Shown here one piece after another: positions 4,722-48,441 of a DNA stretch of 48,441 nt. The notes beneath the pieces were generated by a model. That model was not told the DNA's origin. It saw only the letters and a program-made list of their open reading frames with translations, and searched no databases. Positions within the stretch are counted from its first letter, which is position 1. Each line of letters begins with the position of its first letter. The translations under genes and the position numbers were made by a program. Source of the stretch: Clostridia bacterium (lineage in GTDB: Bacteria > Bacillota > Clostridia > DUPQ01); the NCBI GenBank assembly GCA_030590175.1, contig JAUUZE010000001.1, positions 1 to 48,441 on the forward strand. The letters are read 5' to 3'.

Positions 4722-4742
4722 TTTGATGATTTAATCATCAAA
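4722..4742. repeat. Conserved palindrome copy 2 (centre TTA)
   Basis: Perfect core. Adjacent to a small GGGAG/CTCCC hairpin at 4743-4758. Confidence 0.95.
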
Positions 4743-4994: not shown

Positions 4995-5062
4995 TAAATT
5001 AAGTTTAACTTTATATTAATAATATCTTTTTGATGAAAAATTACTATAGAAATTAACTCCCC

Positions 5063-5083
5063 TATGATGATTAAATCATCAAA
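5063..5083. repeat. Conserved palindrome copy 3 (variant TATGATGAT-TAA-ATCATCAAA), core of an extended 17-bp-stem hairpin at 5055-5091
   Basis: AACTCCCCTATGATGAT TAA ATCATCAAAGGGGAGTT has one A.A mismatch. It starts 9 nt after the capsid gene stop (5100) in the mRNA sense. Confidence 0.95.
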
Positions 5084-5099
5084 GGGGAGTTAAAATAAT

Positions 5100-7034: not shown

Positions 7035-7055
7035 TTTGATGATTAAATCATCAAA
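7035..7055. repeat. Conserved palindrome copy 4 (centre TAA)
   Basis: Perfect core between the stop at 7068 and the start at 7019. Confidence 0.95.
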
Positions 7056-12455: not shown

Positions 12456-12476
12456 TTTGATGATTAAATCATCAAA
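12456..12476. repeat. Conserved palindrome copy 5 (centre TAA)
   Basis: Perfect core between the stop at 12486 and the start at 12444. Confidence 0.95.
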
Positions 12477-15594: not shown

Positions 15595-15615
15595 TTTGAT
15601 GATTTAATCATCAAA
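15595..15615. repeat. Conserved palindrome copy 6 (centre TTA)
   Basis: Perfect core between the stop at 15621 and the start at 15582. Confidence 0.95.
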
Positions 15616-17285: not shown

Positions 17286-17306
17286 TTTGATGATTTAATC
17301 ATCAAA
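17286..17306. repeat. Conserved palindrome copy 7 (centre TTA)
   Basis: Perfect core 25 nt upstream of the LamG gene start at 17260. Confidence 0.95.
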
Positions 17307-19282: not shown

Positions 19283-19311
19283 ATTATAACACACGGTAAT
19301 ACCCTTGTCAA
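19283..19311 (-). promoter_or_regulatory. Consensus sigma70-type promoter, leftward (TTGACA-17-TATAAT)
   Basis: The minus strand reads TTGACA (19311-19306), then a 17-nt spacer, then TATAAT (19288-19283). Confidence 0.75.
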
Positions 19312-19366
19312 CGATAAAATTCCATAAAATTTAAACAGCGATTATTACCCACTGGCTAAACCCCGC

Positions 19367-19387
19367 TTTGATGATTAAATCATCAAA
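19367..19387. repeat. Conserved palindrome copy 8 (centre TAA)
   Basis: Perfect core about 55 bp upstream of the leftward -35 element. Confidence 0.95.
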
Positions 19388-19420
19388 GGGAATCCAATCA
19401 CAGCTACAACTTGGCTTATG

Positions 19421-19466
19421 ATTCAAACCGGATCAGGATTCGAGCCGGATCAGGATTCGAGCCGGA
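19421..19466. repeat. 17-bp tandem repeat (CCGGATCAGGATTCGAG, about 2.7 copies), GC-rich
   Basis: Units at 19428-19444 and 19445-19461 are identical, with partial units on both sides. Confidence 0.9.
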
Positions 19467-19484
19467 CGCCAAGATCATTATAGT

Positions 19485-19520
19485 GCTCGCGCCCCACCTG
19501 CTCGCGCCCCACCTGCTCGC
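19485..19520. repeat. 15-bp tandem repeat (GCTCGCGCCCCACCT x2 plus a partial unit), GC-rich
   Basis: Units at 19485-19499 and 19500-19514 are identical. Confidence 0.9.
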
Positions 19521-19662
19521 TCAATCGTGCCAGGGCACAGGGATTTGATTTACACAAATATGTTGGAGGTTTAGAATTATATAAAAATTCTACAGAGTCT
19601 TAATATATCATACCATAACTAAAAATTCCCCCATCGAGAATAATATCTATATAAAAATAAAT

Positions 19663-19690
19663 TTGACAAATGTTTTTTTTCTGTTATGAT
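19663..19690 (+). promoter_or_regulatory. Sigma70-type promoter, rightward early (TTGACA-16-TATGAT)
   Basis: TTGACA at 19663-19668 and TATGAT at 19685-19690. An upstream ATAAAAATAAA tract is shared with the other rightward promoters. Confidence 0.7.
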
Positions 19691-19879
19691 GTAATCAAAT
19701 GTCAAACAGTTCTTTTACATAACACAATATTTAATATTGTGCCCTTTGTGGAAACAAGCATATCAGGGCTAGACATTGATATAGCTAGGACTGCTCAATG
19801 CACAAAGGTTATTAAGGGTCATTATAATTATAATGATTATAAACTCTAATATGGACAGGATCCATAAAGGAGAATAATT

Positions 19880-20287
19880 ATGATAAGAAAAATGAATCAG
19901 ATACATATTGGTGGCGACAAGGTTGACAATCCTTGTCACGTGGATATAGAACTTGATTGTGAAGGTGTTACCCTAGACCAGGCGTTGGATATGCTTTGTG
20001 CAGCGAGCAGTCCCAGGGTCAAAGCACAAGCCCGACTACGAGATATGCCAGCAGTTGAGTTAGCGGAAAAGGCTAAAAACGGCTGGAAAGTCAAGCTTGG
20101 TGATTTGTACACTAGACAAGCCCACACGACAAAGGTTATCAAGATCAATACCCTGGATGATGCACTGGCAACATTCAGCGAGCGAGACGAGTTCATCAGT
20201 AAGTGTTTGGAAGCCTGGGGTGATATAGGAAGTAAAGAACAGTTCAATAAAATCTATGATCGATATCATTCAAATGAAATAGAATAA
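19880..20287 (+). CDS. First early protein (135 aa), unknown function, locally GC-rich
   Basis: ORF track entry with a strong SD (AAAGGAG) 7 nt upstream. Its GC content is visibly higher than the rest of the phage. Confidence 0.7.
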   Translation: MIRKMNQIHIGGDKVDNPCHVDIELDCEGVTLDQALDMLCAASSPRVKAQARLRDMPAVELAEKAKNGWKVKLGDLYTRQAHTTKVIKINTLDDALATFSERDEFISKCLEAWGDIGSKEQFNKIYDRYHSNEIE

Positions 20288-20337
20288 CCAACAAATAACT
20301 AACAAATAATCATCCTGTTCATAATAGAGTTTATAAT

Positions 20338-20415
20338 CCACTTTAATGATCCACTTTAATGATCGGGTTTAATGATCCACTTTAATGATCGGGTTTAATG
20401 ATCGCCTTTGATGAT
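20338..20415. repeat. Six tandem 13-bp units (NNNNTTTAATGAT x5, then CGCCTTTGATGAT, which is the left arm of palindrome copy 9)
   Basis: Units start at 20338, 20351, 20364, 20377, 20390 and 20403. The prefix alternates CCAC/CGGG. Confidence 0.9.
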
Positions 20416-20427
20416 TAAATCATCAAA
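20407..20427. repeat. Conserved palindrome copy 9 (centre TAA)
   Basis: Perfect core. First member of a doublet with 37-bp spacing. Confidence 0.95.
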
Positions 20428-20443
20428 GCAAATCATAATCGCC

Positions 20444-20464
20444 TTTGATGATTTAATCATCAAA
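20444..20464. repeat. Conserved palindrome copy 10 (centre TTA)
   Basis: Perfect core. Second member of the doublet. Confidence 0.95.
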
Positions 20465-20493
20465 GGGGTTTAAACCAAACAGGAGTAATAATC

Positions 20494-20625
20494 ATGTCAT
20501 TTAAAGATATGTGTTATGCTAGACAAAAGTATTTTGCCCAGCAAAAGCGGATTCATAGAATACGGATATTTAGTAAAGTTATCCAGATCATAATCGGTAT
20601 AGTTCTTATGTATGTTTGTATATAA
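20494..20625 (+). CDS. Unannotated small ORF (43 aa) with a hydrophobic C-terminus (MSFKDMCYARQKYFAQQKRIHRIRIFSKVIQIIIGIVLMYVCI)
   Basis: My translation. AGGAG lies 8 nt upstream of ATG 20494. It falls below the ORF-track cut-off. Confidence 0.4.
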   Translation: MSFKDMCYARQKYFAQQKRIHRIRIFSKVIQIIIGIVLMYVCI

Positions 20626-20641
20626 ATTAGATAATTGATGT

Positions 20642-20695
20642 AACCGTTTTAACCGTTTTAACCGTTTTAACCGCATTAACCACATGAACCGGGGT
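20642..20695. repeat. Six 9-bp-phased units starting with AACCG (AACCGTTTT x3, AACCGCATT, AACCACATG, AACCGGGGT)
   Basis: Read directly from the sequence, with exact 9-bp periodicity. Confidence 0.9.
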
Positions 20696-20725
20696 AGGGC
20701 TTCCCTCATGGGCGGGCTGGTAGGT

Positions 20726-20761
20726 GGTTATGATGGTTATGATGGTTATGATGGTTATGAT
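20726..20761. repeat. 9-bp tandem repeat GGTTATGAT x4, followed by a TG-rich run and an A10 tract
   Basis: Four identical units. GTGTGTGTGT follows at 20773-20782 and an A-run at about 20790-20799. Confidence 0.9.
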
Positions 20762-20926
20762 GGGTAGTTGTTGTGTGTGTGTAGTGTATAAAAAAAAAAT
20801 TTAAAGATTCTAGAAACAAATACAAAACTAAATATAAACAACTAAACAAACACAGATACTATATATAAGAGTTATGGAGCAGGTTAATCATAACCATATT
20901 GGCATCGTTGGAGGGAAGGGCTGGGG

Positions 20927-20980
20927 CGGTTAATCTGGTGCATGCGGTTAATCCGGTTAATCCGGTTCATCCGGTTCGGG
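20927..20980. repeat. Six 9-bp-phased units, five starting with CGGTT (reverse complement of AACCG): CGGTTAATC x3, CGGTTCATC, CGGTTCGGG, plus one degenerate unit
   Basis: Units start at 20927, (20936 degenerate), 20945, 20954, 20963 and 20972. The orientation is inverted relative to 20642-20695. Confidence 0.85.
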
Positions 20981-21020
20981 CGCAAGCACTATAATAATAT
21001 TACTAATGAGCCTTCAGCGA

Positions 21021-21060
21021 ATCAAATCGAATCAAATTAGATCAAATTAGATCAAAATAA
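21021..21060. repeat. 10-bp tandem repeat (ATCAAATNNA x4) immediately upstream of the promoter at 21084
   Basis: The four units are ATCAAATCGA, ATCAAATTAG, ATCAAATTAG and ATCAAAATAA. Confidence 0.85.
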
Positions 21061-21083
21061 TTATCAATAGATAAAAATAATGG

Positions 21084-21112
21084 TTGACATGATGATTATT
21101 TTATGGTATTGT
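21084..21112 (+). promoter_or_regulatory. Sigma70-type promoter, rightward (TTGACA-17-TATTGT with an extended -10 TGG)
   Basis: TTGACA at 21084-21089 and TGG-TATTGT at 21104-21112. The ATAAAAATAA tract lies upstream. Confidence 0.6.
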
Positions 21113-21145
21113 TGTGGAAAGTGAATGATAATAATAACGATCCGC

Positions 21146-21166
21146 TATGATGATTTAATCATCAAA
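21146..21166. repeat. Conserved palindrome copy 11 (variant TATGATGAT-TTA-ATCATCAAA)
   Basis: Stem extended by ATCCGC/GCGGAT (21140-21172). It lies in the predicted leader of the 21084 promoter, 41 nt before the ATG at 21208. Confidence 0.95.
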
Positions 21167-21207
21167 GCGGATTATAAAATAAATTTAAACTATGAAAGGG
21201 GAAAATT

Positions 21208-21399
21208 ATGAAAATGCGTTTATTGATTATAGATAATGATTATTATTTTAACTGGGAATTAAGTACTCAAGGAATAATAATTGCAAAAGATTGGGATTAT
21301 TCAACGGCTGAAAAAGCTGAAAAAGCTGCAAAAAATGTTGCTAAACAATTAAATATTACCATAAGTAAGTGTACATATCATAATACAAAAGATGAATAA
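21208..21399 (+). CDS. Early hypothetical protein (63 aa)
   Basis: ORF track entry with SD AAAGGGGA. Confidence 0.6.
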   Translation: MKMRLLIIDNDYYFNWELSTQGIIIAKDWDYSTAEKAEKAAKNVAKQLNITISKCTYHNTKDE

Positions 21400-21421
21400 A
21401 TTTAAATTATGAAAGGAATAG

Positions 21422-22464: not shown

Positions 22465-23250
22465 ATGAAAAAAAACTGGAAAAAAATTGTGAAAAATTCA
22501 CAAAACTTAGAGCATGCTAATTTAAATTATGCTGACTTGAGTGGTACTGATTTACGTCATATTAGTTTACATCATATTAGTTTACGTCATGCTGATTTAC
22601 GTTATGCTAATTTACGTGGTACTGATTTATATTATGCTGATTTATATTATGCTAATTTAGAATATGCTAATTTATATTATGCTAATTTACAAGATGTTAT
22701 TTTAGAGCATGCTAATTTAAGTAACACTATTTTACAACATACTAATTTAGAACATACTAATTTAAATAATGCTAATTTAAGTAACGCTAATTTACGTTAT
22801 GCTAGTTTAATTGATGCTAGTTTAATTGATACTAATTTAGATTATGCTAATTTAGAATATGCTAATTTAGACGGTGCTAATTTAGATGGCGCTAATTTAA
22901 ATAGAATTAAATATAATTATGCTACTTCAGGTATCCATCCAGCACCAGAAGGAAGTTTGATTGGCTGGGGTAAGAAAAATGGTGTAATTGTAAAACTACT
23001 TATACCGGCTAATGCTAAACGGTCATGTGCTACAACCAGGAAGCATAGAGCTGAGTATGCAATTTGTCTTAAAGTTGAAGGAGCTTATAAAGTTATAGTT
23101 GAAAATTCTATTGCAAATGTAACAACTACTTATGCTCCTGGCAAAATAGTTCGCTGTCACAAGTGGGACATGAATCGTTGGAAAGAATGTTCTGGCGGGA
23201 TACATTTTTTCTTAACACGAGAAGAAGCAAAAAATTGGCAAGTGATATAA
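22465..23250 (+). CDS. Pentapeptide-repeat protein with a conserved Cys-containing C-terminal domain (paralog 1)
   Basis: About 25 consecutive A(D/N)L.. pentapeptides (ANLNYADLSGTDLRH...), followed by a C-terminus ending GIHFFLTREEAKNW. Confidence 0.85.
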   Translation: MKKNWKKIVKNSQNLEHANLNYADLSGTDLRHISLHHISLRHADLRYANLRGTDLYYADLYYANLEYANLYYANLQDVILEHANLSNTILQHTNLEHTNLNNANLSNANLRYASLIDASLIDTNLDYANLEYANLDGANLDGANLNRIKYNYATSGIHPAPEGSLIGWGKKNGVIVKLLIPANAKRSCATTRKHRAEYAICLKVEGAYKVIVENSIANVTTTYAPGKIVRCHKWDMNRWKECSGGIHFFLTREEAKNWQVI

Positions 23251-23264
23251 ATTAAACGATCCGC

Positions 23265-23285
23265 TTTGATGATTTAATCATCAAA
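23265..23285. repeat. Conserved palindrome copy 12 (centre TTA)
   Basis: Perfect core between the two pentapeptide paralogs. Confidence 0.95.
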
Positions 23286-23308
23286 GGAAATTATGCGAAA
23301 GGAAAATA

Positions 23309-24007
23309 ATGAAAGAAAAATATAAAGAAACTATAAAATATAAAGAAACTATAAAATATGAAGAAACTATAAAAGATTATCAAGAATGGTTAAATAATTC
23401 AGATTTAAATAAACCTAGTTTACATCACGCTGATTTAAGTAATACTGATTTACATCATATTAGTTTACGTCATGCTGATTTAAGTTATGCTAATTTATAT
23501 TATACTGATTTAAGTTATGCTAATTTACGTTGTACTAATTTAAGTTATGCTATTTTAAATAATACTAATTTACATCATACTGATTTAAGTTGTGCAGATT
23601 TATGCGGTGCAGATTTATGTGGTGCTAATTTGAGTAATGCTGATTTACGGCATGCTAATTTAGGTGATATTAAATATAATTATTTAACTATAGGTATCCA
23701 TCCAGCTCCTGAAGGAATACTAACTGGCTGGGGAAAGAAAAATAAAAGACTTGTAGAATTACTAATTCCTGCTAATGCAAAAAGATCATGTGCTACAACT
23801 AGAAAACATCGAGCAGAATATGCAATCTGCACTAAAATTGAGGGAGCTGATAAAGTTACGGTTGAAAACTCTCATACAAAAGAACTAACTATTTATGCTA
23901 TTGGCAAAACAGTTTATTGTCATAAATGGGATCCAGACAGATGGAATGAATGTTCTGGTGGGATACATTTTTTTCTAACTAGAAAAGAAGCAATAGAATG
24001 GATGTAG
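23309..24007 (+). CDS. Pentapeptide-repeat protein with the same C-terminal domain (paralog 2)
   Basis: Pentapeptide repeats plus a C-terminus alignable by eye with 22465..23250 (IHPAPEG..GWGKKN...LLIPANAKRSCATTRKHRAEYAIC...CHKWD..RW.ECSGGIHFFLTR.EA). It has an N-terminal KETIKY x3 from 18-bp repeats at 23324-23377. Confidence 0.85.
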   Translation: MKEKYKETIKYKETIKYEETIKDYQEWLNNSDLNKPSLHHADLSNTDLHHISLRHADLSYANLYYTDLSYANLRCTNLSYAILNNTNLHHTDLSCADLCGADLCGANLSNADLRHANLGDIKYNYLTIGIHPAPEGILTGWGKKNKRLVELLIPANAKRSCATTRKHRAEYAICTKIEGADKVTVENSHTKELTIYAIGKTVYCHKWDPDRWNECSGGIHFFLTRKEAIEWM

Positions 24008-24027: not shown

Positions 24028-24048
24028 TTTGATGATTTAATCATCAAA
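24028..24048. repeat. Conserved palindrome copy 13 (centre TTA)
   Basis: Perfect core, 20 nt after the stop at 24007 and 30 nt before the ATG at 24079. Confidence 0.95.
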
Positions 24049-24846: not shown

Positions 24847-24867
24847 TTTGATGATTTAATCATCAAA
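24847..24867. repeat. Conserved palindrome copy 14 (centre TTA)
   Basis: Perfect core with a TCC/GGA stem extension, 25 nt before the ATG at 24893. Confidence 0.95.
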
Positions 24868-27813: not shown

Positions 27814-27834
27814 TTTGATGATTTAATCATCAAA
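27814..27834. repeat. Conserved palindrome copy 15 (centre TTA)
   Basis: Perfect core starting 5 nt after the stop at 27808. Confidence 0.95.
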
Positions 27835-29605: not shown

Positions 29606-29626
29606 TATGATGATTAAATCATCAAA
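29606..29626. repeat. Conserved palindrome copy 16 (variant TATGATGAT-TAA-ATCATCAAA)
   Basis: The core has one A.A mismatch. Its AAGGAG flank lies 12 nt before the ATG at 29642. Confidence 0.95.
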
Positions 29627-30936: not shown

Positions 30937-31155
30937 ATGAGCAGATTATCAATAGACATTTCTGATGAAAAGTCTTTAGCTCTTGATCAAATCTTAGAAC
31001 ATGGAATGAGAGTAGTAGTATTTAATCTGCTCATTGATGATCTTCTTGAAACTTGTAATAAACATGGTGCTGGAAAGGTTATAGGTGCATTGATTGAAAG
31101 AGCTATTACAATTAAAGAAATTAGTAATCTTAATTTTAAACTGGAGAATAAATAA
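30937..31155 (+). CDS. Hypothetical protein (72 aa)
   Basis: ORF track entry with SD AAGGAG. Confidence 0.6.
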   Translation: MSRLSIDISDEKSLALDQILEHGMRVVVFNLLIDDLLETCNKHGAGKVIGALIERAITIKEISNLNFKLENK

Positions 31156-31945: not shown

Positions 31946-31966
31946 TTTGATGATTTAATCATCAAA
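31946..31966. repeat. Conserved palindrome copy 17 (centre TTA), 14-bp stem
   Basis: The core is extended by TTTGC/GCAAA (31941-31971). Confidence 0.95.
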
Positions 31967-33344: not shown

Positions 33345-34001
33345 ATGAAGCTAATAAAACCAAGTTTTGATATTTTATTTATTTCACCTAAACCACTTGA
33401 AACAATTGAAATGGCTGGAAGAACTTGTTATAAATCAGAAGATAAAATAACTAAGAATTCTGCAGAAAAATTTATTAAGATGATTATTAAAAATAGTCAC
33501 TATTCAGTAATTGAGCATGTAAATATGTCAGTGAGAATCATCTGTGATAGAGGAGTATCACATGAGATTGTTCGTCATCGACTTGTATCATATAGTCAGG
33601 AAAGTACAAGATACTGTAATTATGCAGGAGAAGTTACTTTTATTATCCCTCCTTGGATAGATATTGAAGAAGGAGAATATGCTCTTCCTTATTACGAAGA
33701 TCAACCAGGATACCCAGAACTTTTTTGGTATAAAAGTTTGATTCATGCTGAAAAAGAATATAAAAACTTACTTTATTCAGGATGGTCTCCTCAGCAGGCT
33801 CGTTCCGTTCTTCCAAATTCACTTAAAACTGAAATCATAGTGTCAGCAAATATGCGAGAGTGGATACATATTTTTAAATTAAGAACCTCCAAAGCAGCTC
33901 ATCCACAAATGAGAGAAATAATGATTCCTCTTTTAAAAGAAGTAGAAAGAAAAATTCCAATAATCTTTGATGATATTAATAAATCCCCTTTGATGATTTA
34001 A
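33345..34001 (+). CDS. thyX: Flavin-dependent thymidylate synthase ThyX
   Basis: The ThyX signature RHRLVSYSQESTRY and a typical size of 218 aa. Confidence 0.9.
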   Translation: MKLIKPSFDILFISPKPLETIEMAGRTCYKSEDKITKNSAEKFIKMIIKNSHYSVIEHVNMSVRIICDRGVSHEIVRHRLVSYSQESTRYCNYAGEVTFIIPPWIDIEEGEYALPYYEDQPGYPELFWYKSLIHAEKEYKNLLYSGWSPQQARSVLPNSLKTEIIVSANMREWIHIFKLRTSKAAHPQMREIMIPLLKEVERKIPIIFDDINKSPLMI

Positions 34002-34009
34002 TCATCAAA
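33989..34009. repeat. Conserved palindrome copy 18 (centre TTA), overlapping the 3' end of thyX
   Basis: The last thyX codons (...SPLMI) and the TAA stop (33999-34001) lie inside the palindrome. GGG then TTTT follows. Confidence 0.95.
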
Positions 34010-38378: not shown

Positions 38379-38399
38379 TTTGATGATTAAATCATCAAA
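38379..38399. repeat. Conserved palindrome copy 19 (centre TAA)
   Basis: Perfect core, 11 nt after the stop at 38367 and 28 nt before the ATG at 38428. Confidence 0.95.
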
Positions 38400-38427: not shown

Positions 38428-38814
38428 ATGACAGATGAAAAAGGACTTACAATAGAAAATCAAGAAGATATAAAATTACTTAGATCAATAGCAACAACAC
38501 TTCATACTCTTCTATGTAATCGAAAACATAATAGTGAAGATCAAACTTGCTGTCAATTCTATTCTAATGAAATATTTTCTGCACATCATGAAGATCTTTG
38601 GGCTGAAGAATCACATAAAGATTGGATTCAAATAACTAAAGTTTTAATGAAACTGAATCATGTACAAGAAAAGGAGATGTTTATAATTCTTGAAAACATA
38701 TCAAAAGTTATTCTAGATATATCTAATCTATTATCTAAATATCCAAAGATGTATAATATAATAAAAGAAGTAATTGAAAGTATATTTACAAACCACCCTT
38801 CAAGCCAGAACTAA
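38428..38814 (+). CDS. Hypothetical protein (128 aa), last gene of the rightward arm
   Basis: ORF track entry with SD AAGGAAAA. Its 3' end overlaps the convergent 1412-aa gene by 29 nt. Confidence 0.6.
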   Translation: MTDEKGLTIENQEDIKLLRSIATTLHTLLCNRKHNSEDQTCCQFYSNEIFSAHHEDLWAEESHKDWIQITKVLMKLNHVQEKEMFIILENISKVILDISNLLSKYPKMYNIIKEVIESIFTNHPSSQN

Positions 38815-41800
38815 TACCACCAATACCACCACTTCGTTTTTTCTTCTTATGACTCTTGGAATCAATTTTTGGCAAACTTACTAATTGTTTAGCCCAAGAG
38901 TCATAATAATCTGTAGGATAACTCTTATTCCAAGCATTAGCTACTTTTGAAGCTGTTCCCCAATATTGAAAATGTTCTTCTGTTCCTTCGAATAATCCTT
39001 TCTGACTTATCACAGAATATAAATCCAGAACTGGAGACATATAAATATCTGGATTTGCAAACTTAAATCCTTTCTCTGTCGGTTTTATAAAATGACTAAT
39101 GAATGGTGGATGTAAGAATAGTTCTAAAACACTAGTATCATTTGCTCTAGCGATACTTTCAGCTATTCCAACATACATAAGATATCTCATAAATCTTGTT
39201 CTATAACTAGTTCCAAAAACATCTTTCTCACCTTTAAGAGCCTTCTTAATTATATCATATTTATATTCAAGAAGTTTTATTGGAGTCATTGTAAACATAG
39301 TAAATGCTCTAGCTCCAGTACCTTTCATCCACAATGCCTGATCACTTTGACCTCTAAAATTTGAATCAAGAATATTTTTCCAGATAGCTTTTTGAACTTT
39401 TTCCATTGGCATCTTACCAACACCTGACATAATCCCTGCCATAACATTAATACCATTTTCAAATGCTTCGATTGCAACAGTTGGCTGAGCTAAAAGAGCT
39501 TTAACTCTTTGTGATCCTTCTCTAAATCCTGGAATTTGATCTAATTCCGCCACAATATTTTTCTGTTTTATAAAAGCACTAATAACATCTAACTCATGTC
39601 CTTTTGGCTCACGTCCAAAAGTTTTTTTAAATGCTTGACCAGCTGCTTTGAAAGCTAATTTACTAGCTTGAATATTAGCTTTTGTACTATATATTGCAAA
39701 TGTCCCTGGAAGCTTTAATAAATGCTTAAGTCCAACACTAAGTGAAGCACCTATAAGTCTAAGATATTCAAAATCTACAAGTTTATCAACACCATGTTCC
39801 ATTAACCTAGATACTCCAGTCTCATGTTTTCGATATAGATTTTTATCTATCCACTCATTGTATAAACTACGTAAACCAGTATCTGCTCCAGCCATAGTTT
39901 GAGCAAACCTATTAAAGAATGGTTGATGAGCTAGCTTCTTCTCAACCATAGGAATATATACATCTAGAATTTGACTTGCATCTGGTATCCATATTCTACC
40001 GTTTGGCATCTGTCTTTGAAAATCCATAATTTCAGGAGCTTTAAGTTTCTTAAAAAACCCAACATCTTTAGGATTATCAAGAACTGAATTCCAGAGTCTA
40101 GTCATATATGTTTCTTTTTTATCAATAGGTATACCAACATCTTGAAGATGTTCTTTCTTTGTTAAAAAATATTCTTTTAATCTTCTTGATAAAAACATTT
40201 CATCAGCATTAAGTTTAACTTCTGGATGCTGTTTAAGTTGTTCAAGTTTCTTAAGAGCATTCTGATATCGTTTTGATTTCATAAGAGTTTCAGATCTATT
40301 CGACTCATGAACTCCTTGAATATATTCATTTAGACTTTTAATTCTTTGTTGTGGTAACTGCCCACCAGCATGTAGAGTAGCCTTAACAACTGGCTCATTA
40401 TATAGCTTAACTATATTAATATCATAATCTTCTGGTAATCCTTTTAGTCTTTTTCCAATATTTTTACTTTGTAATTTTAATTTCTCTAACCTCTCTTCAT
40501 ATTTTTTCTTTTTATCTTTTGGTGACTTTTTAATTTGTCTCTTAATAACATCTATCTGTCTACCGATACTATTTCTCTTATTAATATCAGGTCTATATTT
40601 TTCATAAACAGGATCAAGAACATCACTAATTCTTTTCAATCTATCTTTTTTATCTTTATCAAATCTCTTAAATAAATCCTGTTTCCATTTTGAATAATTA
40701 CTAATATTTGTATGAAAAGCAATATTAGATTGTTGCATATCTATTACAGGATTATCTATTAAATCAAAAGCTTTTTCAAATTGATAATGAGGACTTGCAA
40801 GATCTTTCTTAATATCTTTTTTAATCTTAGGAACTCTCTCAACATTAATTCCTGATTTCATATGTTGTGGAAGTTCATAAGAACCTTTTTTATAACCTTT
40901 AACTATCACACCCTGATCTAATAAGTATTGATGAAATTCTGATAATTTTTCCTTAGGAGTATTATCTATAATTCTCTTATCTATCTCCATTTGTACAGCA
41001 GTTTTCTTTGCTTGATCAAGTTTACTTTTTGCATCAGAAAAATCTTTAGCATCAAACTCTTTAAGTTCCTTTTGCATCTGCCTATTAATAAACTCATCAA
41101 CAATTAGTGCTTCTTTTTCTGAATAACCAGCATCTAACAAATACCTAAGAACTTCTATCCCTTCTTCTTTAGCTGCCTTAATAATATTTCTAAGTTGCTG
41201 AACTCGCTCTGGTGGGAGTGGACCAGTTGATATTGATCCTCGCTCATCTTTAAGAATCTCTTTAACACTATCCATAAGTTCTGCTAATAATTCTGAATCT
41301 CTTCCAACACCTTTAGAAAAACTATCATCAGCCATATCAAAGATATCACTCATAGTTGTTTCAACTATATCTTCTTTTGTTTCAGCTGCTTCAAGTTTTT
41401 CTTTAAGTGGTCTCTTAGCATCAAGTAAAATATCAGCTCTATCACCGAGCTGTTTTTCTACTTTAATATGATCTATACCTGTCAATATTCTATCTACATA
41501 TTCATTAACTTGTACAAATCTAGGATCATTAGTTGGAGCTTCACTTATTAAACTCTTTAATTCTTTTTCAACATTTAGAATAATATCTGTATCACCTGGC
41601 TTCTCTATCCACTCTCTCATTACTTCACCAAGAGCATCAATCTCTTGCATTAACTCATCTGGTTCTTTAACATACTTATATGTTCTATCTTTCATTGAAG
41701 GAATTTTATCTTCATCAGTTAATTCTTTCAGCAACTTTCTTCTTTTTTCTGTCATTTTATCTTTAGGAATAATATCCCCTTTGATGATTAAATCATCAAA

Positions 41801-44434: not shown

Positions 44435-44455
44435 TTTGATGATTAAATCATCATA
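44435..44455. repeat. Conserved palindrome copy 21 (variant TTTGATGAT-TAA-ATCATCATA)
   Basis: One mismatch in the core. First member of a doublet with 38-bp spacing. Confidence 0.9.
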
Positions 44456-44472
44456 GCATTTATATTATCCCC

Positions 44473-44493
44473 TTTGATGATTAAATCATCAAA
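44473..44493. repeat. Conserved palindrome copy 22 (centre TAA)
   Basis: Perfect core with a CCC/GGG extension. Second member of the doublet. Confidence 0.95.
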
Positions 44494-46965: not shown

Positions 46966-47730
46966 CTATGATTCTTTTTCAAATTCAAGAAGGGAATGGC
47001 CATAGCGATGAGTGGAAAAGTCCGCCTTACTTTCGGTGAAATAACGTGACCAAAATTTTTGTATGGATCGAAACTTTTTGGAATTGGGTGCACTGGCCCC
47101 TGCCACATAGACCTTAACATTGGCGAGGTTGGGAACGAGGTTTTGTTCTTTTTGATTTCGAATCACATTGGAAATGTATTTATTTGTGATCTTATGACGA
47201 CCAAATTTGTATTGCTTAGAATCCTGGATCATATCAGAAAGGATAACCAGGATCTTTTTACGTTTTTCTTTATGGAAGATTGTATCGACAACATTCAAAG
47301 AATTTAGAATTTCCGTATATGGAGTCCCTTTCTTGCGAGACAGGAGTCGGTCTACCGATTTTCGTACGTTTTTCTTAGTCTTGGCCAGGTTTTGTTCGTA
47401 TTGAAGGCGGTTAGTCCATAATGATTGTTTAGGAATTTCCGTATCAATCACCGGTTTGAAGTCGATGTAGGAGTGGCTGGTGATGGTTCCTACGACAATA
47501 CGGTCCCCTTGCCGCAGGTTTTGATAGACTTTATCAAACGCTTTTTGATAAACTGTGCGACGTGCTTTGTTAGTGCTTCCGGACATGTCGACAAAAACAA
47601 CGATCGCCCGCGAAGGTTTTTTATCTTTTCCGAATATCGAAGATGCGTCCGCGTCCCGAATCATTGAACCCAAAAAAAGAAAAGAGCAGAAAAAGATGAT
47701 TAAAAAGAGTCTATATTTCCACCGTCTCAT
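46966..47730 (-). CDS. Secreted/lipoprotein-like von Willebrand factor A (vWA) domain protein, in non-phage-like DNA
   Basis: N-terminal signal-like MRRWKYRLFLIIFFCSFLFLGS and the MIDAS motif VVFVDMSGST. Codon usage and GC are clearly different from the phage. Confidence 0.7.
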   Translation of the reverse strand: MRRWKYRLFLIIFFCSFLFLGSMIRDADASSIFGKDKKPSRAIVVFVDMSGSTNKARRTVYQKAFDKVYQNLRQGDRIVVGTITSHSYIDFKPVIDTEIPKQSLWTNRLQYEQNLAKTKKNVRKSVDRLLSRKKGTPYTEILNSLNVVDTIFHKEKRKKILVILSDMIQDSKQYKFGRHKITNKYISNVIRNQKEQNLVPNLANVKVYVAGASAPNSKKFRSIQKFWSRYFTESKADFSTHRYGHSLLEFEKES

Positions 47731-47918
47731 TGGGGTATACCTCCTTACTGCAGGTAGATAGGCTGAAGGTTAAGTCTGTTAGGGAAAAGCGCATTTTGAG
47801 CAATGTTTGGTGCAAAAAAAAGCTATTTCCAGTAAAAGTCGGCAATCGTACTCTTTAGACTCCTTCAGCCTTCAGTCTAAACAGCTTCAGCCTGACTACA
47901 TGATAGTAGTCACGTTTT

Positions 47919-48441
47919 TCATTTTTTACTCGCCGCCTCAGAACGACGCAATGCGGTGGTTGCGTTTAACAGTTCCTTGCTGTTTTCTTGTTTTTCGAAA
48001 TCCACGCCTATCTCATGTTCCTTTTCAAAAGACTTGGGTTTTGTATGATCAGGACGTTCGCGCTGATTAATTTTGCGATAGTGATAGATGAGTTCCTGGG
48101 CTTCCTGATGAATACGGCTGATTTTTTCCTGTTGTTCGGAAAGAATTTCATTATGTTTTGCTTCAATGGAACGCATGGACTTATTGAGCTGGTTGGTCCG
48201 GCGGTGCAAATGCTCCAACATAGGGTCTTTATCATGGGCAAAGTAGGAGCATAACGTGGCTGCAGCCAAAATAACCAGGTTCAGGCCAACAAATGAGGCT
48301 CCTATAAATTTGCTGCTGGCGAAACTGCCGACCCCACCGGCCACGGAAAGGTCACCCAGGTACTGAACGCGTACATAGCCGATTGCAACCAAGCCGGCTA
48401 TTGTAAGAGTAAATAGTAAGCCTACACCGAGGGCACTCTTC
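47919..48441 (-). CDS. Membrane plus coiled-coil protein, 5'-truncated by the window edge
   Basis: The track ORF is 47919..48392 with a TTG start. The frame stays open upstream to base 48440 (…KSALGVGLLFTLTIAGLVAIG…), so the true start probably lies outside the window. Confidence 0.55.
   Translation of the reverse strand, partial: KSALGVGLLFTLTIAGLVAIGYVRVQYLGDLSVAGGVGSFASSKFIGASFVGLNLVILAAATLCSYFAHDKDPMLEHLHRRTNQLNKSMRSIEAKHNEILSEQQEKISRIHQEAQELIYHYRKINQRERPDHTKPKSFEKEHEIGVDFEKQENSKELLNATTALRRSEAASKK

Follow-up and report, generated by a model that had tools for sequence, protein, structure and literature searches.

The locus considered here, where a run of 13-bp direct repeats leads into two palindromes just after the first early gene of a phage, raises the question of whether the repeats are a functional loading site for a protein that recognizes half-sites, and of how the palindromes themselves act. 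The window, by which we mean the whole 48,441-nucleotide stretch of DNA analyzed, is a new ~48 kb phage. Megablast against GenBank phages returned no near-identical genome, the protein encoded by the first early gene is present on a single contig only, and a metagenome scan with the first-gene alignment detected no further copies of the locus. Prophage relatives were sought for host inference, and only a 31%-identical terminase, in a Thermodesulfobacteriota MAG, was found. The locus comprises the following features:

19663 to 19690, plus strand: sigma70-like early promoter TTGACA-16-TATGAT, 11/12 matches, ahead of ORF 19880 to 20287
19880 to 20287, plus strand: first early gene, 135 aa, no family hit
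20338 to 20402, no strand: five 13-bp direct units (CCAC or CGGG followed by TTTAATGAT), in the order A A B A B
20406 to 20428, no strand: palindrome copy 9, CTTTGATGATTAAATCATCAAAG, its left arm continuing the phase of the array
20443 to 20465, no strand: palindrome copy 10, CTTTGATGATTTAATCATCAAAG, 37 bp after copy 9
20641 to 20976: 9-bp TAACCG iteron arrays, direct at 20641 to 20695 and inverted at 20722 to 20763 and 20927 to 20976

Reading of the sequence places unit A (CCACTTTAATGAT) at 20338, 20351, and 20377 and unit B (CGGGTTTAATGAT) at 20364 and 20390, and the 26-bp A-B unit at 20351 to 20376 is duplicated exactly at 20377 to 20402. CGCC followed by TTTGATGAT begins at 20403, TTTGATGAT being the left arm of the palindrome at 20407 to 20427, and because 20403 equals 20338 plus five times 13, the array is in phase with that arm. 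TRF reported the array both as 6.2 copies of a 13-bp period (score 97) and as 2.8 copies of a 26-bp period (93%, score 127). The initial annotation had described five 13-bp units running in phase into palindrome copy 9, a second palindrome 37 bp further on, a one-base A-versus-G difference between the array half-sites and the palindrome arm, and a position right after the first early gene. The sequence bears out this description: the second palindrome lies at 20444 to 20464, all units carry A where canonical arms read G, ORF 19880 to 20287 precedes the array, and the numbering of the two palindromes as copies 9 and 10 agrees with the 22 copies that we count.

The TAACCG arrays flank an AT-rich stretch ~240 bp downstream of the half-site array, and the first of them is kept in the related phage L010 with a conserved core and varying spacers. 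The region from 20641 to 20976 is the probable replication origin; no Rep-type initiator was recognized among the ORFs scanned. The first early gene product was considered as a regulator and set aside, having no family hit and a poor AF2 model (pLDDT 49).

The half-site TTTAATGAT occurs six times in the window, five of the six within the array, against an expectation of 3.5 in total, and isolated half-sites occur in the window-wide count at chance-level frequency with no enrichment. The position changed from G to A in the array is G in 44/44 canonical arms of the window phage. A period of 13 bp is out of step with the helical repeat of DNA: neighboring units lie ~86 degrees apart around the helix, and with a period of 13 and a higher-order period of 26 the array fails the spacing for binding on the same face (about 10 to 11 bp or multiples). 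No ORF of at least 20 aa spans the array, a 23-aa minus-strand ORF at 20270 to 20341 overlaps only bases 20338 to 20341 of unit 1, and a promoter scan detected nothing inside the array. Five GATC sites recur in it at 13-bp spacing; a GATC/Dam cluster was rejected, since genome-wide GATC shows no notable enrichment (175 observed, 141 expected).

Comparison of the array locus rests on two relatives, neither near-identical to the window. In L010, whose first gene product is 74% identical at the amino acid level, the sequence "...gagcttataat" is followed directly by two full palindromes and no array, and in the IMG/VR relative L001 the locus holds three full palindromes as a 35-bp tandem repeat, likewise with no half-site array. 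The related genomes, in which the initial annotation had suggested looking for the same architecture, thus have a full doublet only and a full triplet, and the unit number at the locus is fluid. The array is missing from the homologous site in both L010 and L001, and in both the first-early-gene homolog (41% amino acid identity in L001) adjoins a palindrome cluster. By sequence comparison, the conserved feature is this cluster of two to three full palindromes just after the first early gene. The array is very probably a recent, non-conserved amplification, recent because its units are exact copies of one another, and it would have arisen by tandem amplification of the 5′ flank and left arm of the first palindrome in the window lineage only. 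It matters less than the palindromes, mainly showing that clusters expand and contract by tandem duplication, and as a set of natural weakened subsites it offers useful probes for binding assays.

The 23-bp palindrome CTWTGATGATTWAATCATCAWAG is present in 22 copies in the window phage, where none is expected by chance. Eighteen are exact copies of TTTGATGATNNNATCATCAAA (0 expected), and four more, at 5063, 21146, 29606, and 44435, have one arm reading TATGATGAT. Besides copies 9 and 10, they are located as follows:

1627 to 1647: palindrome copy, intergenic
4722 to 4742: palindrome copy, intergenic, next start codon 9 nt away
5053 to 5093, minus strand: palindrome copy with one TATG arm, terminator-like, directly after the major capsid gene
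7035 to 7055: palindrome copy, intergenic
12456 to 12476: palindrome copy, intergenic
15595 to 15615: palindrome copy, intergenic
17286 to 17306: palindrome copy, intergenic
19367 to 19387: palindrome copy in the divergent control region, between divergent consensus promoters
21146 to 21166: palindrome copy with a TATG arm, flanks lengthening the stem by 6 bp
23265 to 23285: palindrome copy, intergenic
24028 to 24048: palindrome copy, intergenic
24847 to 24867: palindrome copy, intergenic
27814 to 27834: palindrome copy, intergenic
29606 to 29626: palindrome copy with a TATG arm, upstream of the Sak4-like gene
31946 to 31966: palindrome copy upstream of the ParB-methyltransferase gene
33989 to 34009: palindrome copy upstream of the DNA polymerase gene, overlapping the stop codon of ThyX
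38379 to 38399: palindrome copy after the primase gene
41780 to 41800: palindrome copy inside the 1412-aa ORF, encoding PFDDLIIKG
44435 to 44493: second palindrome doublet, starts at 44435 and 44473, 38 bp apart

All but one of the copies (21/22) are non-coding, although non-coding DNA makes up 7.8% of the genome, and each of these follows a stop codon and precedes the next ribosome-binding site, 9 to 68 nt from the start codon; that of a 43-aa ORF is ~30 nt downstream of copy 10. Their spacing is more even than that of random positions (CV 0.59, P = 0.009) and also than that of random gene junctions (P = 0.006). Upstream of the consensus leftward promoter (19311 to 19283), the copy at 19367 to 19387 lies 56 bp from the −35 hexamer, and that at 21146 to 21166 is ~35 bp downstream of a promoter at 21084 to 21112. 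The palindrome is near-perfectly symmetric in the window lineage, with the TATG arm on the 5′ side in 16 copies across the lineage and on the 3′ side in 7, and the changes it tolerates are one-sided and fall at the outer T/A position and in the center. Described as subsites, two inverted arms of 9 to 11 bp lie 12 bp apart center to center, and the five direct units of the array follow at 13-bp spacing. No exact match to the 23-mer was found in 185,579 species genomes or in the metagenome and IMG/VR collections; a host REP-like element or host transcription-factor site was rejected on the absence of the exact motif from the bacterial genomes scanned.

Between lineages the palindrome changes in its core. 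The core is ATGATT in the window, L010, L021, and L024, GTGATT in the IMG/VR relative, TCCCAA in Desulfofustis phage OP947158, and ATCAAT in IMGVR_3300024265_000091. Core changes hit both arms together, and the outer CTWTG...CAWAG is constant in all of them, across lineages with only 42 to 80% protein identity. The position after the primase gene is kept in the IMG/VR relative, as a doublet, and in the Desulfofustis phage. The site homologous to the coding copy bears in a relative its own version of the palindrome, encoding PFGDKITKG, so that a coding-embedded palindrome is kept in two phages despite amino acid changes (D to G, I to T). Complementarity of the palindrome flanks shows no excess over a permutation control, and selection for longer stems was rejected because the two are at the same level. 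That the palindromes would be recognized by their sequence, and not as generic hairpins, is supported by within-genome invariance, the joint change of the arms, the coding copy, the flank control, and the conservation of a weakly ribbon-helix-helix (RHH)-like small protein in every palindrome-bearing relative.

We therefore consider it plausible, with the arguments evenly balanced, that the palindromes are recognized on DNA by a protein. In this model a sequence-specific oligomeric phage protein would occupy the palindromes in duplex DNA, with one subsite per arm. The cluster that follows the first early gene would be a high-occupancy site, flanked by that gene on one side and the probable origin on the other. 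As for the array, it would either contribute subsites of reduced strength or have no effect, and nucleation would not depend on it. Taken as a whole, this reading of protein-bound palindromes on duplex DNA, with the array as a young by-product of amplification, is one that we prefer tentatively. The initial annotation had favored protein sites over hairpins; the palindromes do look sequence-specifically recognized, and the part of that proposal that finds no support is the array as a conserved nucleation or iteron site.

An unlikely but serious alternative is that the palindromes act in RNA, as intercistronic hairpins in polycistronic transcripts, and that the array is a non-functional by-product of duplication. 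The hairpins could be processing sites, stabilizers of 3′ or 5′ ends, or sites for a translational regulator near the ribosome-binding site, and the doublets could form a 23-bp duplex resembling an RNase III substrate. The intercistronic position of 21/22 copies fits such roles, as does the Shine-Dalgarno sequence (SD) formed by the 3′ arm and flank (AAAGGAG or AAAGGGG) in about seven copies. About five strong sigma70-type promoters were found, and with so few, transcripts should be long. Predicted hairpins have energies of −10 to −17 kcal/mol with z-scores of −4 to −7, and a doublet folds as one long stem; single copies form stems of 10 to 14 bp, whereas doublets can reach about 25 bp, against the about 20 bp or more of an RNase III-type duplex. 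The array itself is unstructured when folded as RNA (z = +1.3), in keeping with a by-product. The distant relatives L009 and L011 have a directional version of the motif, oriented the same way as transcription and in L009 fused to the SD, a pattern that fits a role in RNA or transcription and speaks against DNA binding. However, the L009-type motif is predicted to pair poorly, with two fixed mismatches, a hairpin would not need the exact identity of 22 copies, flank complementarity is within the permutation control, and the one-sided variants give A.A or C.A mismatches on the sense strand and not G.U pairs. Conserved copies inside a 4.2-kb ORF are also hard to square with intercistronic hairpins.

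Termination in particular does not account for the family. The copy at 5063 is enlarged by 10 extra complementary pairs on each side and has a T-rich tail on the minus strand, giving a terminator-like hairpin after the capsid gene, and 24028, 24847, and 33989 weakly resemble terminators. Most copies are followed by GGR without a T run, and a general role as intrinsic terminators was rejected because U-tracts are absent; there is also no palindrome copy at the convergent junction near 38.8 kb. A known RNA family or CRISPR-repeat mimic was likewise rejected: Rfam gave no gathering-level hit, and an E-value scan returned only miRNA hairpin noise and CRISPR-DR63 (E = 3.9). The initial annotation had held that the array would be hard to explain if the palindromes were only RNA hairpins, an argument that fails if the array is a neutral duplication by-product.

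The preferred reading, binding to duplex DNA, calls for a protein, and the one that we would propose is the following:

30937 to 31155, plus strand: 72-aa protein, RLSIDIS strand at the N terminus followed by helix-G-helix

Only two small proteins without an assigned function are conserved in all four palindrome-bearing lineages, this one and a 133-aa protein that was rejected as the binder since it resembles DUF669 of recombination modules. Among 78 homologs of the 72-aa protein, ParD (RHH) is the only recurrent Pfam family (six members, best E 0.0033), and one of the 78 matches RHH_1. The window protein itself has no Pfam hit, its AF2 monomer (pLDDT 65) no Foldseek hit, and hhalign against an approximate CopG sequence gave 10.7% probability. 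Proteins of the RHH fold class can bind series of subsites in direct and inverted orientation. The 72-aa protein is weakly RHH-like, and its candidacy as the DNA binder of the palindromes is doubtful.

It is improbable that, as the initial annotation proposed, the five phased half-sites are a functional, iteron-like nucleation array that cooperatively loads a half-site-recognizing protein. The exact phasing with the palindrome arm, the possible RHH-type protein, and the proximity of the array (~240 bp) to the probable origin all suit that model. So do two findings in the IMG/VR relative: a second arm-derived array, (ACCAAAG) x about 6, beside a doublet, which means that such arrays could be selected and not accidental, and two full "A-class" palindromes (TTTAGTGAT...ATCACTAAA) flanking its first early gene at the same locus, by which the G-to-A variant may be a real second site class there. 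Against it, the array is absent in both relatives covering the locus, its identical units mark it as young, the G-to-A change hits the position invariant in canonical arms, the period is off the helical repeat, half-sites are without use elsewhere in the genome, and the conserved repeats of the region are the 9-bp TAACCG units. A broader version, to which we give little credence, would make the palindromes and arm-derived arrays a genome-wide, evenly spaced lattice for a small phage RHH protein, with the array and doublet nucleating. The phage, which looks lytic, would then carry a global system like those of omega, ParG, or KorB, its origin-side cluster being high-occupancy or centromere-like, and specificity would co-evolve across the phage family through changes of the 6-bp core.

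Very unlikely is the idea that the palindromes work as hairpin or cruciform signals read when the DNA is single-stranded or supercoiled, such as N4/T7-style promoters or priming or recombination signals. The 3′ half with its flank (TCATCAAAGGG; AATCACTAAAGGG in a relative) presumably resembles T3/T7 promoter cores, the palindrome center is 11 nt from the first G, and the downstream flank is G-rich in 19/22 copies, but no RNA polymerase is detectable, for which reason a phage RNA polymerase promoter was rejected; the only large unassigned ORF, of 1412 aa, matches nothing in PHROGs, Pfam, or PDB, and polymerase motifs are not visible in it. The motif is, moreover, essentially symmetric in the window lineage, and the copy in the last gene of its operon has nothing downstream to express. 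A sigma70 promoter within the motif was also rejected, the −10-like hexamers lacking key bases and being inconsistent between lineages. Just as remote is a selfish or homogenized repeat kept identical by recombination or gene conversion with no trans-acting partner, the array being the same process acting on half a unit: tandem amplification is visible at the locus (35-bp unit in a relative, 13/26-bp units here) and the phage has genes for a recombination module (Sak4-like, exonuclease, and DUF669-like proteins), but the outer motif is constant across diverged lineages, certain positions are kept, e.g., that after the primase gene, the copies are evenly spaced, and the coding-embedded copy is maintained.

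Protein-bound palindromes would have parallels among known dispersed operators. The stoperators of Cluster A mycobacteriophages, the KorB OB sites, and the P1 C1 operators are present in ~12 to 30 dispersed copies read by one element-encoded protein, and in stoperator-type systems the site sequence co-evolves with that protein. Like these, the palindromes are intergenic copies of one specific site across a replicon of ~50 kb. Stoperators are asymmetric, strictly oriented, and found in temperate phages, whereas the motif here is symmetric and directional only in the distant L009 and L011, and no integrase or immunity repressor was found in the window phage; no ORF scanned matched an integrase or repressor family, many ORFs having no family at all, and no ParB-type HTH DNA-binding domain was identified. 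RHH operators and centromeres (Arc, Mnt, omega, ParG) consist of short inverted or direct subsites bound by cooperative RHH dimers. Adjacent inverted and direct subsites are present here too, and we take the omega heptad WATCACW to resemble the AATCACC/AATCATC arm core, but subsite spacing is 12 to 13 bp as opposed to the typical 7 to 11 bp. Like origin iterons, the 13-bp array consists of direct tandem repeats within a control region close to AT-rich DNA, but it is not conserved and has no linked initiator gene, and the TAACCG arrays are a much better match to the iteron pattern.

Dispersed phage-specific palindromes are known in several phage groups, with, to our knowledge, a mechanism established for none. 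The present lineage is tractable in this respect, combining core co-variation over four lineages, a fixed outer motif, a coding copy, even spacing, and conserved clusters with a short list of conserved small proteins as candidates. Cluster O mycobacteriophages carry a 17-bp palindromic repeat, TGTTCGGNNNCCGAACA, with 34 copies in Corndog, for which binding of a dimeric regulator was proposed and whose function is unknown (PMC4351075). As in that repeat, the arms are invariant within a genome and the center is A/T-rich and variable, dozens of copies occupy mostly short intergenic gaps and some genes, there is no clear orientation, host genomes lack the sequence, and local insertion, deletion, and duplication events involve the repeats (PMC4351075). 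The sequence and the phages are nevertheless unrelated, and the element described here is 23 bp, almost exclusively intergenic, with cores that co-vary across diverged lineages and with arm-derived tandem arrays. The SAS/ESAS repeats of Cluster K mycobacteriophages, also of unknown function, likewise lie just upstream of the start codons of a subset of genes, overlapping the ribosome-binding site, and ESAS form imperfect inverted repeats with a consensus that varies among subclusters (PMC3203893). SAS is a 13-bp asymmetric element at a fixed distance from the start codon (PMC3203893), whereas the element of the window phage is a near-perfect palindrome located 9 to 68 nt from the start codon of genes of all classes.

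The window represents a new phage with a double-stranded DNA genome of ~48 kb and 31% G+C, to which no nucleotide match was found among GenBank phages; its closest named relative is Desulfofustis phage LS06-2018-MD01, with 42-44% protein identity. Structural genes run leftward from ~19.3 kb, and early and replication genes, among them those for ligase, exonuclease, Sak4-like ATPase, ParB-methyltransferase, ThyX, family-A DNA polymerase and primase, run rightward from 19.9 to 38.8 kb, followed by another leftward block. The half-site array and its palindrome doublet lie inside a 2-kb control region (19311-21420) that contains consensus sigma70-type promoters in both directions and numerous further tandem arrays:

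19311-19283, minus strand: sigma70-type promoter (12/12 matches)
19663-19690, plus strand: sigma70-type promoter (consensus scan)
20338-20402: five 13-bp units, in order CCACTTTAATGAT, CCACTTTAATGAT, CGGGTTTAATGAT, CCACTTTAATGAT, CGGGTTTAATGAT (sequence read)
20406-20428: 23-bp palindrome copy, CTTTGATGATTAAATCATCAAAG
20443-20465: second palindrome copy, CTTTGATGATTTAATCATCAAAG
21084-21112, plus strand: sigma70-type promoter (consensus scan)

The initial annotation had described five phased 13-bp units running into a palindrome with a second copy after it, and both sequence reading and TRF confirmed this as written. The 13 bp at 20403-20415 (CGCC+TTTGATGAT) continue the phase of the array and include the left arm of palindrome 20406-20428. 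TRF reported period 13 with 6.2 copies and, more strongly, period 26 (2.8 copies, 93% matches), 20377-20402 being an exact repeat of the 26-bp block 20351-20376. Of the six occurrences of TTTAATGAT in the window, five are inside the array. An ORF scan of the array region detected no ORF of at least 20 aa spanning the array, the first four bases of which are touched by a single 23-aa ORF (20270-20341, minus strand), and folding predicted no structure for the array itself (z = +1.3). A GATC site arises wherever one unit meets the next, so that five lie at 13-bp spacing across 20338-20402; genome-wide, GATC is not notably enriched (175 observed versus 141 expected).

Comparison with two related phages indicates which part of this arrangement is conserved. 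In L010, a related fragment covering the array locus, the first early protein is 74% identical to that of the window, and the DNA past the gene aligns with the window to '...tagagcttataat', followed by 'caaac' and two full palindromes 39 bp apart; the 13-bp array is absent at this locus, and the 43-aa ORF 3' of the window doublet is missing. In the relative IMGVR_UViG_3300005265_000060, which is ~80% identical to the window in polymerase and terminase, the first gene is 41% identical, and three full palindromes occupy the same position as a 35-bp tandem repeat. Because doublet and triplet are present without the array, what is conserved is a cluster of several full palindromes following the first early gene, in which unit number and form differ lineage by lineage. 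The units of the window's array copy each other exactly, pointing to recent amplification, and all five have A where 44/44 canonical arms of the genome have G (TTTA versus TTTG); elsewhere in the window genome, solitary half-sites are found at chance frequency only. With B-DNA turning once in roughly 10.5 bp, units spaced 13 bp apart are each shifted by ~86 degrees around the helix from the one before. The proposal that the array is iteron-like was therefore not borne out: it is absent from L010 and the IMG/VR relative and its period is off helical phase, so that it departs from iterons in both conservation and phasing. On the best reading, an apparently weakened half-site at the edge of the conserved palindrome cluster was amplified recently, and in this lineage only, to form the array.

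A functional array nevertheless stays alive as a reading, on account of two features of the IMG/VR relative. Two full 'A-class' palindromes, TTTAGTGAT...ATCACTAAA, carry the G-to-A change on both arms, as in the array, and flank the first early gene of that phage. The relative also has a non-coding array of about six 7-bp units (ACCAAAG), derived from the outer right arm and directly past the doublet downstream of primase. Taken with the window array, this means that arm-derived arrays beside doublets arose at least twice, reflecting either a mutational tendency of such clusters or selection for extra subsites. The 7-bp array (L008 13755-13803 in the relative's coordinates; GACCAAA/ACCAAAG, about 6-7 units) lies just ahead of the Shine-Dalgarno (SD) sequence of the homologue of window 38428-38814.

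The element of interest is the palindrome family itself. TTTGATGAT-NNN-ATCATCAAA has 18 exact copies in the window versus 0 expected, and four additional copies with TATGATGAT as one arm bring the total to 22. All except one lie within the non-coding 7.8% of the genome (21/22), typically 5-40 nt past a stop codon and 9-68 nt ahead of the next start codon. Counted as 20 loci, they show a more even spacing (CV 0.59) than positions drawn at random (P = 0.009) or gene junctions drawn at random (P = 0.006). The sole internal copy (41780-41800) lies in the largest gene, a 1412-aa ORF with no detectable family, and encodes PFDDLIIKG; at the homologous place the relative retains a motif version of its own, which encodes PFGDKITKG, so that the DNA motif is maintained at the expense of protein sequence. 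The relative's in-gene copies lie at L008 17099 and 17459; both phages thus keep copies in this gene, with lineage-specific DNA sequence and altered amino acids.

The IMG/VR relative has ~22 copies of ccTWTGGTGATTWAATCACCAWAgg, differing from the window's motif by A to G and T to C on both arms, and the ATGATT core of the window is found in the closer fragments L010, L024 (JGI 3300040801), L021 and L022 (Logan runs). The Desulfofustis phage has ~9 copies of CTATGTCCCAAnTTGGGACATAG, and IMGVR_UViG_3300024265_000091 has five of CTATGATCAwtwwtTGAACAAAG. Compared across lineages, the family-wide form reads as an 11-1-11 inverted repeat with a conserved outer CTWTG...CAWAG and a symmetric 6-bp core that is particular to each lineage. 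The motif of the two distant lineages is directional, oriented with transcription, and in the 3300024265 phage it runs into a GGAGG SD; in the window's lineage it is essentially symmetric, the T/A arm variant being 5' in 16 copies and 3' in 7.

We give about an even chance to the palindromes being sites recognised by a protein on DNA. Consistent with this, copies are invariant inside each genome, core changes between lineages are symmetric, and tolerated variants are one-sided, at the outermost T/A position and the centre, producing A.A or C.A mismatches and not G.U pairs. The 3300024265 version pairs poorly, coding-embedded copies are kept, spacing is even, and one copy lies between divergent promoters. 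No flank complementarity above permuted controls was detected by two measures in the window (P = 0.04 and 0.63), nor was it significant in the relative. Action in RNA is a more doubtful alternative, to which the strict placement of copies between cistrons, adjoining or overlapping the SD, and the directionality in distant lineages do lend weight. Long transcripts are to be expected from the small number of host-type promoters, and the hairpins are stable (-10 to -17 kcal/mol). The copy after the major capsid gene (5053-5093, minus strand) forms a near-perfect inverted repeat of 41 bp with a T-rich tail behind it. With 10 complementary pairs added on each side, directly past the capsid gene, this copy (5063) resembles a terminator and is likely an intrinsic terminator or attenuator built on the motif.

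As to a possible binder, none of the window ORFs scanned was recognisable as an RNA polymerase, a sigma factor or an HTH regulator. Two small conserved proteins annotated without function are common to all four palindrome-bearing lineages. One (133 aa) resembles DUF669 of recombination modules. The other (72 aa, 30937-31155) has the conserved strand RLSIDIS at its N-terminus and then helix-Gly-helix, and a full HMMER search gave 91 homologues. Among the 78 scanned for families, six match ParD, a ribbon-helix-helix (RHH) antitoxin family (best E 0.0033), one matches RHH_1, and no other family appears in more than two members. A PDB profile search gave a marginal match only, to the strand and first helix of TTHA0139; the AF2 monomer model was mediocre and found no Foldseek match. 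An RHH fold is thus a lead, not a result, and the protein is a weak candidate for the palindrome binder, tied to the palindromes by co-occurrence only.

The array and doublet separate the first early gene from a far stronger candidate for the origin, formed by three 9-bp repeat arrays with a common TAACC(G) core:

20641-20695, direct: six TAACCGnnn 9-mers, core kept in L010, spacers varying
20722-20763 and 20927-20976, inverted: GGTTA and CGGTTAA arrays flanking an AT-rich stretch (20780-20880)

These arrays probably mark a replication origin with true iterons, and the palindrome cluster might insulate early transcription from the origin or couple the two. Functionally, the palindromes can be likened to stoperators, KorB, C1-type dispersed operators and RHH operators. 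The family is a new case of a type of phage repeat that has been described before but lacks an explanation. Closest to it are two sets of mycobacteriophage repeats, both without known mechanism: the 17-bp palindromes of Cluster O (PMC4351075) and the SAS/ESAS repeats of Cluster K (PMC3203893).

Other elements of the control region were also detected. Five or six ATCAAATnnn repeats of 10-bp period (21020-21080) abut the TTGACA of promoter 21084-21112 and look like phased A-tract or UP-element-like DNA. G+C-rich direct repeats at 19420-19466 and 19484-19520 (17 bp x 2.8; 15 bp x 2.5), in this 31% G+C genome, have palindrome 19367 on one side and the early promoter on the other; they lie upstream of a small-terminase-like gene and might serve packaging or regulation. 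The first early gene has a long 5' leader (window 19720-19810 versus L010 235-330) that folds into stems with compensatory changes: when just these two sequences are aligned, both partners differ in 9 pairs. This leader matches no Rfam family and may have a structural role or yield a small RNA. A small separate palindrome, TTATAATGATTATAA (19819-19840), ~40-55 nt upstream of the first early start codon, is kept in L010 (about 325-340), and the corresponding place in the relative holds an A-class copy of the big palindrome (L001 1104). Outside the control region, two adjacent pentapeptide-repeat proteins (22465-24007) are encoded by long 15-bp tandem repeats, with a palindrome copy after each. 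The final 1.5 kb (46966-48441), with ~41% G+C, skew unlike the rest of the genome and ORFs with essentially no phage-family matches, could come from a foreign insert or from a join made in assembly at the contig end.
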